From Escherichia coli (GTDB lineage: Bacteria > Pseudomonadota > Gammaproteobacteria > Enterobacterales > Enterobacteriaceae): a stretch of 64,000 bases of DNA. The notes under the pieces were generated by a model, which made no database searches, was not told the origin of the DNA, and was given only the letters and a program-made list of their open reading frames with translations. How positions within the stretch are numbered: the stretch's first letter is position 1; the number at the start of each line of letters is the position of its first letter. Shown here piece after piece: positions 7,723 through 50,348 of this stretch. The DNA is taken from NCBI RefSeq assembly GCF_016026235.1, contig NZ_CP065613.1; one strand, written 5' to 3'. The position numbers and the translations under genes were made by a program.

Positions 7723-7869
7723 GATTCGCCTGAACATGCCCTTTTTTCGTAAGTAAGCAACATAAGCTGTCACGTTTTGTGATGGCTATTAGAAATTCCT
7801 ATGCAACAACTGAAAAAAAATTACAAAAAGTGCTTTCTGAACTGAACAAAAAAGAGTAAAGTTAGTCGC

Positions 7870-7978
7870 GTAGGGTACAGAGGTAAGATGTTCTATCTTT
7901 CAGACCTTTTACTTCACGTAATCGGATTTGGCTGAATATTTTAGCCGCCCCAGTCAGTAATGACTGGGGCGTTTTTTA
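7870..7978 (+). ncRNA. spf: Spot 42 small RNA
   Basis: sequence GTAGGGTACAGAGGTAAGATGTTCTATCTTTCAGACC...CCCCAGTCAGTAATGACTGGGGCGTTTTTTATT matches remembered Spot 42 including intrinsic terminator; conserved position between polA and engB. Confidence 0.9.
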
Positions 7979-8103: not shown

Positions 8104-8736
8104 TTATTCGCCGTCCTGCGTTTCTTCTACAGGCTGCATCTCGCTAAACCAGGTATCCAGTTTCTGCCGCAGCTTGTCCACGCCTTGTTTCTTCAACGAA
8201 GAAAACGTTTCAACCTGCACATCACCGTTAAACGCCAGTACAGCTTCACGCACCATATTCAATTGCGCTTTACGTGCGCCGCTTGCCAGTTTGTCCGCTT
8301 TGGTCAGCAACACCAGCACGGCGATATTGCTGTCTACCGCCCACTCAATCATCTGCTGATCCAAATCTTTCAGCGGATGGCGAATATCCATTAGCACCAC
8401 CAGACCTTGCAGGCTCTGACGTTTTTCGAGGTACTCGCCGAGCGCGCGCTGCCATTTGCGCTTCATCTCTTCCGGGACTTCCGCATAACCGTACCCAGGC
8501 AAGTCAACCAGACGCTTGCCGTCAGCCACTTCAAACAGGTTGATAAGCTGGGTGCGCCCTGGGGTTTTTGAGGTACGAGCCAGGCTTTTCTGGTTAGTCA
8601 GCGTGTTCAGCGCGCTGGATTTACCTGCGTTGGAACGGCCTGCAAAAGCCACTTCAATTCCGGTATCGGAAGGTAGGTGGCGAATATCAGGCGCACTCAT
8701 CACAAAATGCGTCTGTTGATAATTCAAATTAGTCAA
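8104..8736 (-). CDS. engB: ribosome biogenesis GTPase EngB (YihA)
   Basis: 210-aa ORF with G1 motif GRSNAGKSS and other GTPase motifs. Confidence 0.95.
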
Positions 8737-9006: not shown

Positions 9007-9248
9007 ATAGAGCGAGGACGCTAACAGGAACAATGACTCAGGATGAGGGTCAGGAGCGCCAGGAGGCGAAGACAGAGGATTGTCAGGAAGACAAACGTCC
9101 GGAGACGTAATTAAACGGAAATGGAATCAACACGGATTGTTCCGGCTAAAGGAAAAACAGGGTGTGTTGGCGGCCTGCAAGGATTGTAAGACCCGTTAAG
9201 GGTTATGAGTCAGGAAAAAAGGCGACAGAGTAATCTGTCGCCTTTTTT
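9007..9248 (+). ncRNA. csrC: CsrC small RNA (CsrA-sequestering)
   Basis: about 240 nt between engB and yihI with about 13 GGA motifs (CAGGA/AGGA in predicted loops) and terminal hairpin ggcgacagagtaatctgtcgcc plus T-run; matches known csrC location. Confidence 0.85.
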
Positions 9249-9317
9249 CTTTGCTTGCTTTCTGTTAGATTCCGCCGCAAATCTATACTGAATAAAACGG
9301 CTAAAAGACGAACCATT

Positions 9318-16006: not shown

Positions 16007-16076
16007 CTGCACCATGATGTGAATGTTGCACCAATATAGTGCTTCAATGGAAACATTAAGCACCATATTGGTGCAA
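16007..16076. promoter_or_regulatory. NtrC enhancer binding sites upstream of glnA
   Basis: dyad motifs TGCACCA-N-TGGTGCA family: gctgcaccatgatgtg, tgcaccaatatagtgc, gcaccatattggtgca. Confidence 0.7.
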
Positions 16077-16226
16077 TGACCTTTGGATAACCCTTTTTAT
16101 GCTCCGTGAAAGCGATCACAAAGGGACTCTGCAATACTTGTTTGCGGAGGATGTTTGTGATCCTGTTTTGTAGTGCGATTAATCCGTGTACAATAACGCG
16201 CTATTTCTAATGCCTGAGGCAAAGTT

Positions 16227-26496: not shown

Positions 26497-28533
26497 TTAG
26501 ATGTTTTTTAACGAGGCGAACAGTGCAGCCCATTCGCTGTCGGCGCGATAAAAGACCGGCGGCTTGCCGATGGGCGCTTCAACAGTTATTTCTCCACCGT
26601 GGAAGGTTTCTCCGGTCCAGGCGTGGACCCAGTTATCCTCTGGCAGATAGAGCGTCCAGTCGCTACGACCTTCTTCGTGTACCGGAGCAACCAGAATGTC
26701 GCGACCTAACAGGTACTGATATTTCAGGGAATAGGTCTGCGCGTCGTCTTCGTAATGCAGGAACAGCGGGCGCATAACCGGCAGGCCGGACTTCGCATTC
26801 AGCGCGACGGCCTCTTTCAGGTAAGGTTTCAGGGTGGTGAAGACGGTGGTCATACGGGCGAAATGGGCGATGGTTTCCGCGTCGCCGTCAAACTGCCAGT
26901 TGTCGCTAGGACGGTTACCTTCGTGGGTGCGCATCATCGGCGTGAAGGCGCTGAAATCGCACCAGCGCAGCAGCAGCTCTTTGCTGCGCTTCATCTCAAA
27001 CAGGGTGGTATAACCGCCAATGTCGCTGTGATGCAGGCCATGTCCGGTCATTGCCAGAGATAGCGCCGCCGGGACAACCGACGCCAGGCCATCGTCCAGA
27101 CTCCAGTCCACGTTCTGGTCACCCGCCCACATCATGGTGGAGTATTTCTGGCTACCGGTAGAACCGGCGCGCATAAAGAAGAGGATCTCGCCGAGCTTGC
27201 CCGTTTCTTCAAGGGCTTCGTAGTTACATTTCGCCCACAGCGCGGGCCAGGCGTTATGCATAATTTCCGCGCTGATGCCGTTATGCAGGTACGTGTCGGT
27301 GGGCAGATACTCGCCGAAGTCAGCCATCCAGCCGCCGCAGCCGAGTTCAATCATGTTCTTTTTGATAACTTCCTTGAACTAGGCGTAGGCTTCCGGATTG
27401 GTGAGATCGACAACGCCGCCGTAGAACTCGCCAAACTCCACCAGATAGTCGCCACCGGCGACATCTTTTGCCAGATAACCGCGCTTTGCCGCCTCTTCGC
27501 AGAGATCTTTATCACTGGCAACATACGGGTTGATATAGGCAAGGAACTGCACGCCCTCTTTGTTCCACTGCTTGATACGCGAATCCAGTTGCGGGTAGTT
27601 TTCGCTGTTCCACTTCCAGTTCCACATCACGCGTTTGCCAAAAGAGGTCATACGAATACCGGACCAGTCCTGCGCCCAGATGCCGTTGACCTTCACGCCC
27701 GCGTTACGCATGGTGTCCAGTTTCTTCTGGCACACTTCCGTCCCGCCCTGAATGCCGAGCGTTACTCCGTCATAAATCCAGTCGGGCAGTTCTGGCTGGC
27801 GTCCCAGCAGGGCGGTTAATTTTTCCAGCAGGGAGATGTATGTGTCAGCACATTCAAAACGCAGCGTTGCTTTGTCTTCCCACAGCGCCAGTTCATGGTA
27901 TTCTGGGGCACTAAAGTCGAAGTTCATATAGCAACTGTTATCAACATGGCAGTAATACTTCTGCGTGCTGACAAACGTAGGCTGTGGGAAGAAAGTCCAG
28001 TAATAGTCGCCGCCCGCATTTTCTTTGCAGTCGGCCTGCCAGGTGACATAGGTTTGTTTGTTGCGACCAACGCCTTGTTCACTGGTCCATAGCGGGAACG
28101 GTTTGCCACGCAGATCGAAGTAGGAAAACTGTTCGCCGCAGCCGTAGATATGGTCCTCTGGTTGAGCGGCAAGGCGCAGCCAGATACGGTTGTGGTTAAG
28201 GTTGTCGTTTTGTAGTTCCAGCAATAAACGGCCCTGATCGTCGGCAGAGATATTCAGCGTGGCGCTAATGTCAGAACCACGGCTGAAATGGATTAACCAA
28301 CCATCCGGCGACTGGCTGACGATGGCGTCGGTAAGCGCAATTTTCTCCTGTAGTTTATCTTTAATGCTGAAATTGCCGCGGAACATATCGATATCCGCAA
28401 TACCTGAACCAATCCATAAACAAGGATTATCTTTGCTATGGGTTAAAATAAGACGCTGTTGAAAATGTAGGGTAAAACTGTCGTTATTCTGATGAAACTG
28501 AAAATCTGGTAATTGTGGGCGTGGCGTATCCAT
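26497..28533 (-). pseudogene. yihQ: sulfoquinovosidase yihQ (GH31 alpha-glucosidase family) interrupted by in-frame amber codon at 27379..27381
   Basis: two ORFs (27379..28533 and 26497..27354) lie in the same frame separated only by TAG; flanking translation ...LTNPEAYA*FKEVIKKNMIELG...; total length 678 codons equals intact YihQ. Confidence 0.8.
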
Positions 28534-46270: not shown

Positions 46271-49200
46271 TTACACCTTTTCCACATTCACAAGGAAGGA
46301 CTTAAACTCCGGCGTCTGCGTGTTCGCATCACCAACGAATGGCGTTAACGTATTGGCAATAAAGCCTTTTTTAGCTACGCCTTCATAACCCCAGTGAATC
46401 GGAATACCGATGGTATCGATATCTTTGCCGTTCGCTTTCAGCGTGCGAATACGTTTGGTCACCACCGCTTTGGCCTTGATATAGCCACGGTTGGAGGAGA
46501 CTTTCACGGTATCGCCCTGGGCAATGCCAAGTTTATTCGCCAGCGACTCCCCGATTTCCACAAACTGCTCTGGCTGCAAAATCGCGTTCAACAGCGCGTG
46601 TTTGGTCCAGTAGTGGAAGTGCTCGGTCAGACGATAGGTGGTTCCGACATACGGGAACTTATCGGCTTTACCCAATGCTTCGGCGTCGTCTTTAAAGATA
46701 CGTGCAGCCGGGTTCGAGATAACGTTTGGATGCAGCGGGTTAGTTCCCAGCGGCGTTTCAAACGGCTCGTAGTGTTCCGGGAACGGACCTTCCGCCATCT
46801 TATCGAGGGCAAACAGACGCCCCATGCCTTCCTGCTGCATGATAAACGGCCCGACGCCGCTGCCCGGAGGCGCTGCGCTGTAGTCCGGAATATCCCAGCC
46901 GGTCCACTTAGTGCCGTCCCATTTCAGCAACTGACGCTTCGGATCCCACGGGTTACCCTGCGGATCTGCGGAGGCGCGGTTATACAGAATGCGGCGGTTA
47001 AGCGGCCATGCCCATGCCCAGCCCAGCGTGTTACCGAGGCCAGACGGATCGGCGTTATCACGACGCGCCATCTGGTTGCCTTCCGGCGTCCAGCTACCGG
47101 CGAAAATCCAGCAACCACAGGAAGTTGTACCGTCATCGCGCAGTTGGGCGAACGAGCTAAGTTGTTGGCCTTTCTTGACGATAACCGCACCGGTTGCCGG
47201 ATCGGTAATATCGGCCAGCGCCTTACCGTTACTCTCCATCGCCACTTCTTCTGAAGATGGCTCATGCGGAATGGCGTAGTTCCAGGTCATGTTCAGCACC
47301 TGGTCCGGGTTCGCGCCACCCTGTTCGGCATACATCTTGCGCAAGCGCAGGAAGATACCGGAGAGGATCTCGCCGTCAGTCAGCGCAATCCCCGGGGCGT
47401 CCGCACCTTTCCAGTGCCACTGTAACCAGCGACCTGAGTTAACGATAGAACCGTTCTCTTCCGCGAAGCAGGTCGATGGCAGACGGAACACTTCGGTCTG
47501 GATCTTCGACGAGTCAACTTCGTTCAGCTCACCGTGGTTCTGCCAGAAGTTAGAGGTTTCAGTGTTCAGCGGGTCGATGGTGACGAGGAACTTCAGTTTC
47601 GACAGACAACCGATCACTTTGTTTTTGTTCGGGAATGAGGCAACAGGGTTAAAGCCCTGGCAGATATAGCCATTGACCTTGCCCTCTTTCATCATCTCGA
47701 AGTATTGCAGGACGTCGTAGCCTTTATCCCACTTCGGCAACCAGTCAAAGCCCCAGCTATTTTCCGCCGTCGCTTTATCACCAAAGAAGGCCTTCATCAT
47801 AGAGACGAAGAATTTCGGGTAGTTGCCCCAGTAGTTTACCTGGCCTTCCAGCAGCGGTTTTGGCGTGTTGGCGGTAAGGTAGGTTTGCAGATCGGTCTGC
47901 TTCTCGCTTGGCAGCGTCATGTAACCTGGCAGGCTCTGCGACAGCAGCCCCAGGTCCGTCAGCCCCTGAATATTGGAGTGACCGCGCAGGGCGTTAACGC
48001 CGCCGCCAGCCATCCCCATGTTACCGAGCAGCAGCTGGATCATCGCCATCGTACGAATGTTTTGCGCACCAACGGAGTGTTGCGTCCAGCCGAGGGCATA
48101 CAGGAACGAGGCAGTTTTATCGTGAGCACTGGTTTCTGCGATGTATTCGCAGACTTTCAGGAACGCGTCTTTTGGCGTACCACAGATGTTTTCAACCACA
48201 TCTGGCGTGTAGCGGGAAACGTGCTGTTTCAGCAAGTTCCACACGCAGCGCGGATGTTGCAGCGTGGTATCGCGTTTGGCGAAGCCGTTTTCGTCCAGTT
48301 CATAAGTCCAGGAGGATTTATCGTACTTGCGTTTTTCCGCGTCGTAGCCGGTGAACAGGCCATCTTCAAAGCCGTAATCCTCACGCACGATCAGGCTGGC
48401 GTTGGTATAGGCTTCGGTGTATTCGCGGTTGAATTTTTCATTGTTCAGCAGGTACAGCAATACGCCTGACAGGAAAGCAATGTCAGTACCGGAACGAATA
48501 GGGGCATAGTAGTCAGCCACCGCCGCCGTACGCGTAAAGCGAGGATCGATCACAATCAGCTTCGCGCCATTGTGAATTTTGGCTTCCATCGCCCAGCGGA
48601 ACCCGACCGGGTGAGCTTCAGCGGCGTTACCGCCCATCACCACGACGAGGTTGGCGTTCTTGATGTCGACCCAGTGGTTGGTCATCGCACCGCGACCAAA
48701 TGTTGGAGCAAGACTTGCTACCGTTGGTCCGTGTCAGACACGCGCCTGGTTGTCGACCGCGAGCATACCCAGCGCGCGGGAGAATTTTTGCGTTAAATAG
48801 CCGGTTTCGTTACTCGACGCGGAAGCACACAGCATCCCGGTGGAGAGCCAGCGGTTAACAGTCACGCCTTCGGCGTTTTGCGCAATGTAGTTAGCATCGC
48901 GGTCTTCTTTCATCAGTTTGGCGATGCGATCAAACGCCTCTTCCCAACTGATTTGCTGCCATTTATCAGAACCTGGCGCACGGTATTCCGGAAACTTCAG
49001 ACGGCTTTCGGAGTGGATGAAATCCACCAGGCCAGCGCCTTTCGGACAAAGTGCACCGCGGTTGACCGGGTGATCCGGATCGCCTTCGATATGGAAGATA
49101 GATGCTTTGGCGTTTTTTGCTCCGTCACCGAGGCTGTACATCAACAGCCCACAGCCTACGGAACAATAGGTGCAGGTATTACGGGTTTCGCGGGTGCGCA

Positions 49201-49321
49201 GCAGTTTATACTGCCGGGTTTCCGCGAGTGCTACGCTGGGTGCAAAACCCAGTGCCGCTGCCGTGGTGCCTGCCATACCGCCAGCGCAGATCTTAAAGAA
49301 CTGCCTTCTGCTGACCTGCAT
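46271..49321 (-). CDS. fdoG: formate dehydrogenase-O catalytic subunit (selenocysteine-containing molybdoenzyme), Tat signal peptide
   Basis: ORFs 48734..49321 and 46271..48685 are co-linear in one frame, joined through a single in-frame TGA at 48734..48736 (Sec196); RRQFFK twin-arginine motif at N-terminus; total 1016 codons. Confidence 0.93.
48690..48733 (-). promoter_or_regulatory. SECIS stem-loop for selenocysteine insertion immediately 3' of the fdoG UGA
   Basis: mRNA-sense UGA-CACGGACCAACGGUAGCAAGUCUUGCUCCAACAUUUGGUCG forms a hairpin with GCAAGUCUUGC apical region, resembling the fdhF/fdnG SECIS. Confidence 0.7.
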
Positions 49322-49514
49322 GGATTGCTCCTTGTTTCGACATTGTCACGTCCCATTTACATTCGCTTGCTGCGTGTGCAGGGAGTGGGAGTTATTTTTC
49401 TTTGCGGAAGGGGCCGCAAAGGTCCAGAATTGGCTCAATTTCCCTCCATCCAGGAAGGGTTTGTAACAGAATACCATAATGTTGGTGTGTGTGTTCTTAT
49501 CTGGTTAAGAGAAA

Positions 49515-50348
49515 GTGAAAAAAACACAGCAAAAAGAAATCGAAAATGTGACAAATATCACAGGTGTTCGTCAAATTGAGTTATGGCGGCGTGATGATTT
49601 ACAACACCCACGGTTAGATGAGGTCGCGGAAGAAGTTCCCGTTGCGCTGGTCTACAACGGCATTTCGCATGTGGTGATGATGGCGTCGCCCAAAGACCTT
49701 GAGTACTTTGCGCTCGGTTTTTCGCTTTCCGAGGGGATAATAGAAAGTCCGCGCGATATCTTCGGCATGGATGTCGTTCCTTCCTGTAATGGTCTTGAAG
49801 TACAAATTGAGCTTTCCAGCCGCCGCTTTATGGGGTTGAAGGAGCGCCGCCGGGCGCTGGCGGGACGTACGGGCTGTGGCGTATGCGGCGTGGAGCAACT
49901 TAATGACATCGGAAAACCGGTGCAGCCGCTACCGTTCACCCAGACGTTTGATCTCAACAAACTGGATGATGCATTACGTCATCTCAACGATTTTCAGCCA
50001 GTGGGGCAACTGACTGGTTGTACTCACGCCGCTGCCTGGATGTTGCCATCTGGCGAACTGGTCGGCGGGCATGAAGACGTGGGTCGCCATGTGGCGCTGG
50101 ACAAACTGTTAGGCCGCCGGTCACAAGAAGGGGAAAGCTGGCAGCAAGGTGCGGTACTGGTTTCCAGTCGTGCCAGTTATGAAATGGTGCAAAAGTCGGC
50201 GATGTGCGGCGTAGAGATTTTGTTTGCGGTGTCTGCCGCGACCACGCTTGCTGTAGAAGTGGCTGAGCGCTGTAATTTGACACTGGTAGGTTTTTGTAAA
50301 CCGGGTCGGGCAACGGTTTATACCCATCCGCAGCGTTTGAGCAATTAA
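49515..50348 (+). CDS. fdhD: formate dehydrogenase sulfurtransferase/accessory protein FdhD
   Basis: 277-aa ORF; divergent from fdoGHI. Confidence 0.93.

Follow-up and report, generated by a model that had tools for sequence, protein, structure and literature searches.

The in-frame UGA at codon 196 of the fdoG gene of E. coli is almost certainly a programmed selenocysteine recoding site. The apparent stop that splits fdoG would thus be the codon for Sec196 with its SECIS, and the gene is intact. The finding is correct and ordinary, and it was known already. The evidence comes from the reading frame and the locus, from a match to a known RNA family, and from covariation among homologues. All coordinates refer to the window, by which we mean the whole stretch of 64 kb that was analysed.

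Reading frame, codon 196 and gene identity

In the program-made list of open reading frames, fdoG appears as two pieces, one of 195 aa (48734..49321, minus strand) and one of 804 aa (46271..48685, minus strand). The latter is counted from its first ATG only; the true segment after the UGA has 820 codons and is free of stops. Translation of 49321..46271 on the minus strand gives 1017 codons, in which the only internal stop is at codon 196 (48736..48734), in addition to the terminal stop. The NCBIfam profile TIGR01553 is matched at positions 1-194 by the N-terminal piece and at 196-1009 by the C-terminal piece, so that the two are colinear and leave out a single profile column. These results agree with the initial annotation, which had described colinear pieces joined by an in-frame TGA at 48734..48736. 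A discontinuity of frame across the TGA was looked for, and the frame was found to be continuous over 49321..46271. The annotation had also taken the stop to be Sec196 of formate dehydrogenase-O, as is supported by an alignment in which codon 196 falls on residue 196, a non-standard residue, of the solved FDH-N alpha subunit (1KQF chain A). In other homologues, the equivalent of codon 196 is Cys (TGY). In loci from other species, TGA was present at the same motif position in 120 of 120, from many genera, a set for which the search pattern itself demanded the TGA.

Judged by its sequence and its neighbours, the gene is fdoG, the orthologue of b3894, as had been proposed. It encodes the alpha subunit of formate dehydrogenase-O in 1016 codons plus a stop (46271..49321, minus strand), an assignment based on identity to K-12 FdoG and on TIGR01553. 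The predicted protein is identical to the b3894 product, and the 18 nt differences found in 3051 nt are all synonymous. To K-12 fdnG (b1474) the identity is only 74.9% at the nucleotide and 77% at the amino acid level. The gene order is fdoG-fdoH-fdoI-fdhE with fdhD divergent upstream, the order by which an fdoG locus is recognized. Directly downstream in the operon is fdoH, the gene for the beta subunit (45356..46258, minus strand; TIGR01582, 478.7 bits), whose protein is identical to K-12 FdoH and whose presence marks the locus as fdo, not fdn. Of 5426 complete E. coli genomes, 5424 carry the locus, and in 5424 records the best match to the 111-nt stretch that surrounds the UGA has an identity of 99% or more. 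At the N-terminus of the FdoG translation, a twin-arginine motif, SRRQFFK, could be read by eye, followed by a hydrophobic stretch ending in A-L-A.

The SECIS element and its folding

The hairpin downstream of the UGA is identified here as a bona fide bacterial SECIS. The Rfam model SECIS_3 (RF01989) matches 48739..48681 (59 nt, minus strand) over its full length (model positions 1-59 of 59, with no truncation) and scores 84.3 bits, above the gathering score of 63. Searched in 4 kb, the match has an E value of 8.9e-20; in the whole window the value is 1.4e-18, and there is no other SECIS hit. Subtracting a model position from 48740 gives its window coordinate. On the minus strand, the UGA is followed by an 11-nt spacer, CACGGACCAAC (48733..48723), which is also the 5' arm of the lower stem. 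The upper stem-loop, GG-U-AGCAA-GUC-UUGCU-CC (48722..48705), supported by the fold and by covariation, is the putative SelB-binding element, and at the tip of the hairpin lies GCAAGUCUUGC (48718..48708). At 48704..48691, RNAfold places AACAU in the internal loop and UUGGUC-G-CG in the 3' arm of the lower stem. Counted from the U of UGA, the bulged U is U17 (48720) and the apical-loop G and U are G23 and U24 (48714 and 48713); U17 and G23/U24 are the SelB contacts expected of a bacterial SECIS. Their distances from the UGA match those in K-12 fdhF. The geometry follows that described for the E. coli SECIS, in which the upper stem-loop lies 11 nt after the UGA and the determinants include the bulged U17 and G23/U24 (PMC8659212).

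The initial annotation had likened the hairpin, with its GCAAGUCUUGC apical region, to the elements of fdhF and fdnG. The SECIS_3 match and the fdhF-like spacing, bulged U and loop GU bear this out, as does the alignment with the two Sec sites that it had proposed as a check: the fdnG sequence is identical and the fdhF distances are equal. The absence of a SECIS-like hairpin was looked for as well, and the hairpin is present, scoring above the gathering score. Another proposed check, the folding of the 45 nt past the UGA, also gave a hairpin, which RNAfold predicts as ..((((((((.((.(((((...))))))).....)))))).)).. at -13.8 kcal/mol. In a 66-nt fold, the minimum free energy was -18.2 kcal/mol versus a mean of -19.4 kcal/mol for dinucleotide shuffles (z = +0.38), and 130 of 200 shuffles folded at least as well as the real sequence. 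Because the 66-nt fold is no better than shuffles, stability was dropped as evidence. What defines the SECIS is its shape, its position and its covariation rather than its stability.

The lower stem is less regular. In the Rfam register, two of its pairs do not form in E. coli, which has A-C at 8-48 and A-G at 12-44. An alternative register, 11-46 to 16-41, is fully paired in E. coli, giving a lower stem of eight pairs with one bulge. As a register for the whole family it was rejected, pair 12-45 being formed in only 25 of 66 homologues; the register varies among homologues, and none fits all the sequences. Across homologues, the lower helix is 85.5% paired, and most of this pairing follows from the encoded protein through first and second codon positions. 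The lower stem looks similar in homologues with Sec and with Cys at the equivalent of codon 196, and it is given little evidential weight because it is much alike in the latter.

Covariation and alternative explanations

Covariation was studied in two sets of homologues. The Sec set, drawn from genomes, has 66 distinct UGA-containing sequences of other Proteobacteria, and the Cys set, a negative control drawn from metagenomes, has 51 distinct TGY sequences with the same peptide motif. Since both sets were picked by a peptide-motif pattern and are phylogenetically non-independent, p-values are indicative only. In the Sec set, the upper helix is paired in all 66 homologues (100%). Pair 21-33 is GC in 42, AU in 16, GU in 5 and CG in 3 (66/66 paired), and pair 24-30 is AU in 43, CG in 19 and GC in 4 (66/66 paired). 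Both partners of these two pairs are third-codon positions, which the search pattern and the protein leave free. The covariation score of the real alignment was reached by none of 500 shuffles, the real register is 91.9% paired versus 27-49% for slid registers, and RNAalifold independently recovers the upper helix. The compensatory changes in these sequences thus argue that the helix is maintained beyond what the protein code would impose. All 66 Sec-type homologues, without exception, have the bulged U, the loop G and U (two positions unconstrained by the search pattern) and the wobble G18 of the Thr/Ser codon. In the Cys set, pairs 18-35, 21-33 and 24-30 are formed in only 19, 32 and 29 of 51, respectively, and the loop G26 and U27 are not conserved. 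The contrasts between the two sets give Fisher p values from 1e-8 to 3e-23, to be read as indicative only, the sequences being related and from different collections. Within these sets, the hairpin is specific to the UGA-containing homologues.

These data bear on whether the TGA could be a plain nonsense codon that has turned fdoG into a pseudogene, with the hairpin incidental. A plain ORF finder does split the gene in two, and the window does hold a genuine internal-stop pseudogene, yihQ. Decay of the gene is, however, hard to reconcile with a locus present in nearly every complete E. coli genome and a UGA region at least 99% identical in 5424 records, with a TGA at the equal motif position in 120 loci of many genera, with 820 stop-free codons downstream and only synonymous differences from K-12 (18 of 18), or with a SECIS_3 score above the gathering score together with covariation; the pseudogene is effectively refuted. 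The two genes also differ in their annotation. In yihQ the in-frame stop is a TAG (27381..27379) that has no SECIS match in a search of the 64-kb window, and PGAP flags the gene 'internal stop' in a strain that was found by similarity search and is identical over 121 nt around the TAG, while it calls an intact CDS for fdoG. The contrast with yihQ drawn in the initial annotation is therefore upheld. Its remark that automated annotation often miscalls sites of the fdoG kind is not, the one RefSeq record examined having a single intact 3051-nt CDS. Indels between strains, it may be added, defeat the use of a K-12 coordinate offset for yihQ.

The intact CDS in that RefSeq record is named 'fdnG', and it may be asked whether the gene is that of the nitrate-inducible FDH-N, which would leave the recoding site unchanged but make it part of a different enzyme with different regulation. 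The PGAP name 'fdnG: formate dehydrogenase-N subunit alpha' is carried by every RefSeq row among the matches listed, the best NCBIfam model, TIGR01553, bears the name of FDH-N alpha, and K-12 fdnG and fdoG share the UGA plus 60 nt without a difference. The label is nonetheless very improbable as an identification, given a protein identical to that of b3894, a much lower identity to b1474, and neighbours that are fdoH, fdoI, fdhE and the divergent fdhD rather than yddG and fdnH; the curated K-12 record also names the locus fdoG. Synteny with yddG, fdnH and fdnI and a higher identity to b1474 than to b3894 were both tested at the locus, and neither was found. There is as little to be said for near-cognate readthrough (by Trp or Cys) of the UGA, or for a sequencing artefact, with the hairpin a by-product of the peptide HGPTVASLAPTFGRG and codon bias. 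A by-product would account for a hairpin, the lower stem above all, that is largely set by first and second codon positions, for a lower stem that pairs similarly in Cys-type homologues, and for a folding energy no better than that of shuffles. It would not account for third-codon positions that are free of the peptide and yet constrained only in UGA-type genes (G18, 21-33 and 24-30), for pairs 18-35, 21-33 and 24-30 being formed in only 19 to 32 of 51 TGY genes with the same motif, or for a loop G and U that never change in the Sec set but do so in the Cys set. An artefact, in turn, is at odds with a UGA region at least 99% identical across thousands of independent assemblies.

Mechanism, relatives and significance

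In a recoding site of this kind, UGA codon 196 would not be read as a stop, and the mRNA hairpin downstream would act as the SECIS. From established knowledge, its upper stem-loop is expected to be bound by the elongation factor SelB with Sec-tRNA(Sec) (anticodon UCA, gene selC) and GTP. The complex so tethered would compete with release factor 2 for the UGA, bringing its tRNA into the A site of the ribosome as that codon arrives. The selenocysteine so inserted would be the protein ligand of molybdenum in the bis-MGD cofactor of FdoG, the catalytic subunit of formate dehydrogenase-O, which is predicted to be periplasmic and Tat-exported. We infer SelB binding, Sec insertion and Mo ligation in FdoG from what is established for such systems; all three E. 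coli FDHs ligate bis-MGD via selenocysteine (PMC6239281). No tRNA genes were found in the 64-kb window, and the presence of selC is therefore deduced from the species: of 5426 complete E. coli genomes, 5424 have selC, and the source genome very likely has it.

Among the closest relatives of the site is that of the paralogue fdnG. In K-12, the UGA plus 60 nt of fdoG and fdnG are identical to each other, and the SECIS sequence is identical to that of the window. The longest identical run between the two genes is 71 nt and begins at codon 195, compared with 75% nucleotide identity overall, and all 19 synonymous-capable codons in 197-216 are identical versus 58% gene-wide. FdnG of FDH-N (PDB 1KQF/1KQG) and FdoG of the window share an identical ARV-U-HGPTVASLAPTFGRGAMTNHW motif around residue 196. 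The fdnG locus, however, has yddG and fdnH as its neighbours, and the enzymes differ in expression, FDH-N being nitrate-induced and anaerobic and FDH-O being found at low levels during aerobic growth, fermentation and nitrate respiration (PMC6239281). With Rfam SECIS_3, the family of the fdnG/fdoG type, the window element shares its position relative to the UGA, the upper stem-loop, the bulged U and the GUC loop, and there is no material difference apart from the two lower-stem pairs of the model register that are non-canonical in E. coli.

The SECIS of fdhF (SECIS_2, RF01988) is the experimentally dissected prototype, and its gene product, FDH-H, is cytoplasmic (Sec140) and not a Tat-exported respiratory FDH. 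It has in common with the window element the UGA-CAC-GG context, the 11-nt spacing, the bulged U17 and the loop G23/U24, but the stem sequences differ. The fdhF upper element has 17 nt with a GGUC loop, whereas that of the window has 18 nt with a loop A-GUC-U and a possible A-U closing pair. Assignment of the window element to the fdhF type was rejected, SECIS_2 giving 28.1 bits, well below its gathering score of 70; it is of the fdnG/fdoG type. The Cys-type FdnG/FdoG homologues, which need no recoding, share with the window the motif C/U-HGP-x-VA-x-LAP-x-FG and with it much of the complementarity in the lower stem, which the motif itself imposes, but lack the wobble-position pairing constraint and the conserved loop GU. 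Because wobble pairing and loop GU are unconstrained in them, these homologues are taken to be without a SECIS.

No open question is advanced by the fdoG site. Its practical meaning is limited to annotation hygiene: the split ORF should be joined, codon 196 translated as Sec, and no pseudogene called. It can also serve as a clean teaching example, in which Sec-type and Cys-type homologues share one peptide motif and are told apart by selection on the RNA at wobble positions, visible as covariation and an invariant loop GU. It is conceivable but doubtful, taking the two ideas jointly, that UGA196 and its SECIS are also a selenium-dependent gate of the operon and that the 71-nt identity of fdoG and fdnG comes from ongoing gene conversion. 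When selenium or Sec-tRNA(Sec) is limiting, ribosomes that stop at codon 196 would leave some 2.4 kb of the fdoG mRNA untranslated, which could trigger transcriptional polarity on fdoH-fdoI-fdhE. Polarity of such a kind is reported for fdhF in Treponema primitia (PMC3892789). On the second idea, the run of 71 nt would owe its identity not to purifying selection alone but to conversion between the two genes. Finally, some plus-strand ORFs overlap the site (e.g., 48878..49579), and these were treated as shadow ORFs of the highly conserved coding region.

The UGA codon and its reading frame

The internal UGA that splits fdoG is the gene's textbook Sec196 recoding site in E. coli, and its SECIS is typical of the family; the observation made in the initial annotation is confirmed and its interpretation supported. 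As described there, the mechanical ORF list splits the gene (minus strand, 49321..46271) into an N-terminal piece of 195 aa (48734..49321) and a C-terminal piece of 804 aa (46271..48685), the latter starting at the first ATG past the stop. Translated in one frame, 49321..46271 gives 1017 codons, whose only stops are the terminal one and codon 196, the TGA at 48736..48734 (minus strand, GCG CGT GTC TGA CAC GGA CCA ACG GTA GCA AGT CTT GCT CCA ACA TTT GGT CGC GGT GCG ATG ACC); a frame discontinuity at the TGA is therefore absent. The co-linearity claimed for the two pieces is borne out by TIGR01553 (NCBIfam formate dehydrogenase alpha), since the N-terminal piece matches positions 1-194 and the C-terminal piece positions 196-1009 (1278.8 bits), leaving exactly one column, the UGA. 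In an alignment with the FDH-N alpha subunit (structure 1KQF), residue 196 falls on that protein's non-standard residue 196, and both lie in an identical ARV-U-HGPTVASLAPTFGRGAMTNHW motif. Selenocysteine ligates the bis-MGD cofactor in all three E. coli formate dehydrogenases (PMC6239281).

Anatomy of the SECIS hairpin

A scan of all Rfam families gave a full-length match to SECIS_3 (RF01989) at 48739..48681 (minus strand), scoring 84.3 bits against a gathering score of 63 (E = 8.9e-20 for the 4 kb searched, 1.4e-18 for the whole window), and no other SECIS match in the 64-kb window. SECIS_2, the fdhF-type model, reached only 28.1 bits at this site against a gathering score of 70. In RNAfold, the 45 nt past the UGA form a lower stem, an internal loop and an upper stem-loop, GG-U-AGCAA-GUC-UUGCU-CC (-13.8 kcal/mol), which agrees with the proposed hairpin carrying GCAAGUCUUGC (48718..48708, minus strand, read from the sequence) just past the UGA. 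With the U of UGA taken as nucleotide 1, the upper element begins at nucleotide 15, leaving an 11-nt spacer, U17 is bulged, and G23 and U24 lie in the apical loop. In the K-12 fdhF SECIS the element starts at an equal distance from the UGA, and U17, G23 and U24 recur in place, so that the suggested resemblance to the fdhF and fdnG sites holds, the fdnG site being identical over 71 nt. PMC8659212 describes these features for the E. coli SECIS and names U17 and G23 among the contacts of SelB.

The anatomy fits the established SelB pathway, in which SelB with GTP and Sec-tRNA(Sec) would bind the upper stem-loop of the fdoG mRNA and, competing with RF2, would hand Sec-tRNA(Sec) to the A-site UGA. 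We infer that SelB binding and Sec insertion occur in this way at the fdoG UGA. For the fdhF element, PMC4513850 gives an in vivo recoding efficiency of 30-40%. No tRNA genes were found in the 64-kb window and the trans-acting genes lie outside it; selC is present in 5424 of 5426 E. coli genomes.

Selection on the hairpin beyond the protein code

Folding stability by itself is uninformative, the 66-nt fold being unexceptional against dinucleotide shuffles (z = +0.38). Comparison with the paralogue fdnG is more telling: at 75% overall identity, the longest perfect run is 71 nt, from codon 195, the next longest being 36 nt, and in codons 197 to 216 all 19 synonymous-capable codons are identical, versus 58% gene-wide. 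SECIS selection accounts for most of this run; gene conversion between the two genes may have contributed. The run (window 48669-48739, minus strand, against K-12 fdnG) reaches about 20 nt beyond the hairpin.

That the hairpin is incidental to the coding sequence is excluded by the contrast between Sec- and Cys-type genes at wobble and loop positions. A motif-pattern scan requiring TGA, with one genome per species, yielded 120 loci and 66 distinct 59-mers from Gamma-, Beta- and Alphaproteobacteria and others. All cells of their upper helix are paired (100%), and RNAalifold recovers the same helix. Pairs 21-33 (GC 42, AU 16, GU 5, CG 3) and 24-30 (AU 43, CG 19, GC 4) covary, and in each both partners are third-codon positions left free in the pattern; none of 500 shuffles attained the covariation score of the real alignment, and pairing falls from 91.9% in the real register to 27-49% when the 3' partners are slid. 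Wobble G18 and loop G26 and U27 (G23 and U24 from the UGA) are likewise free in the pattern, yet invariant. The same pattern with TGY for TGA, applied to metagenomes, gave 62 Cys loci, or 51 distinct sequences, that share the peptide motif and in which pairs 18-35, 21-33 and 24-30 form in only 19, 32 and 29 of the 51; position 26 is C in 37 and G in 14, and position 27 takes all four bases. Fisher p values for Sec versus Cys run from 1e-8 to 3e-23 and are indicative only, given the relatedness of the sequences and the separate collections behind the two sets. In its lower stem the Cys set resembles the Sec set, so that part is mostly imposed by the peptide.

A 2.5-kb metagenome contig (L165:1489-1529, plus strand) encodes Cys (TGC) in place of Sec, yet retains an upper hairpin like that of a SECIS (GTGGCCAGTCTGGCC, loop GTC). 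Its protein diverges immediately past FGR, and either a recent switch from Sec to Cys or the decay of a gene copy may account for it. An uncultured Enterobacterales contig (L034) carries two UGA+SECIS sites (2250-2290 and 8164-8204, plus strand); because they lie about 5.9 kb apart on the same strand, it appears to hold two Sec-type FDH alpha genes in tandem.

Gene identity, annotation and neighboring features

A nonsense pseudogene would also give a split ORF. This reading is excluded: the TGA is conserved species-wide and across genera, 820 stop-free codons follow it, differences from K-12 are synonymous only, and the SECIS evidence stands against it. The contrast drawn with yihQ (sulfoquinovosidase; 28533..26497, minus strand) also proved sound. 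Its in-frame TAG (27381..27379, codon 385, ...EAYA*FKEV...) has no SECIS match nearby in the Rfam scan of the whole window, and in strain ERL04-3476, identical over 121 nt around the TAG, PGAP flags yihQ as a pseudogene with an 'internal stop'. Only 3457 of the 5426 E. coli genomes carry that 121-nt stretch, and 607 do so at >=99% identity. The fdoG region belongs to E. coli: a 4.5-kb query from it finds a match spanning 80% or more of the query in 5424 of the 5426 complete genomes.

The claim that automated annotation often miscalls the site is not sustained by the one RefSeq/PGAP record inspected, which has a single intact 3051-nt CDS joined across the UGA; only the gene name is off. All RefSeq E. 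coli rows among the matches listed carry the PGAP label 'fdnG: formate dehydrogenase-N subunit alpha' for this gene. Taken at face value, the name would make this gene fdnG, which is excluded both by sequence, with 18 differences from K-12 fdoG in 3051 nt, all synonymous, against only 74.9% nt (77% aa) identity to fdnG, and by synteny, the order fdhE-fdoI-fdoH-fdoG with divergent fdhD being that of the curated K-12 record. At the protein level FdoH and FdoI likewise match K-12 exactly. The label is a naming quirk following the TIGR01553 name, not a miscalled pseudogene, and looks like a systematic error driven by that equivalog name; it stands although the adjoining gene is named fdoH. The fdoG site has been described before, Rfam curates it, and RefSeq joins it correctly; its sole practical value lies in averting a pseudogene call.

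A single record, NZ_CP065615.1 (3492232-3497509, strain FDAARGOS_943), is 100% identical to the 4.5-kb fdoG region; its match is split in two pieces with an IS1A-family transposase annotated under it, whereas the window has no insertion at that place. A sub-threshold match to FdoG1_thermometer (RF02778; 49292-49490, minus strand; 32 bits against a gathering score of 50, E = 2.6e-5) spans the fdoG 5' UTR and start codon, with only its 3' half (Shine-Dalgarno/ATG) aligning well. Above the gathering score, Rfam places Spot 42 (7860-7978), CsrC (9007-9260), ES222 sRNA (16038-16145) and two adjoining REP-derived naRNA4 copies (59429-59591) on the plus strand, which fit the expected E. coli chromosomal context.
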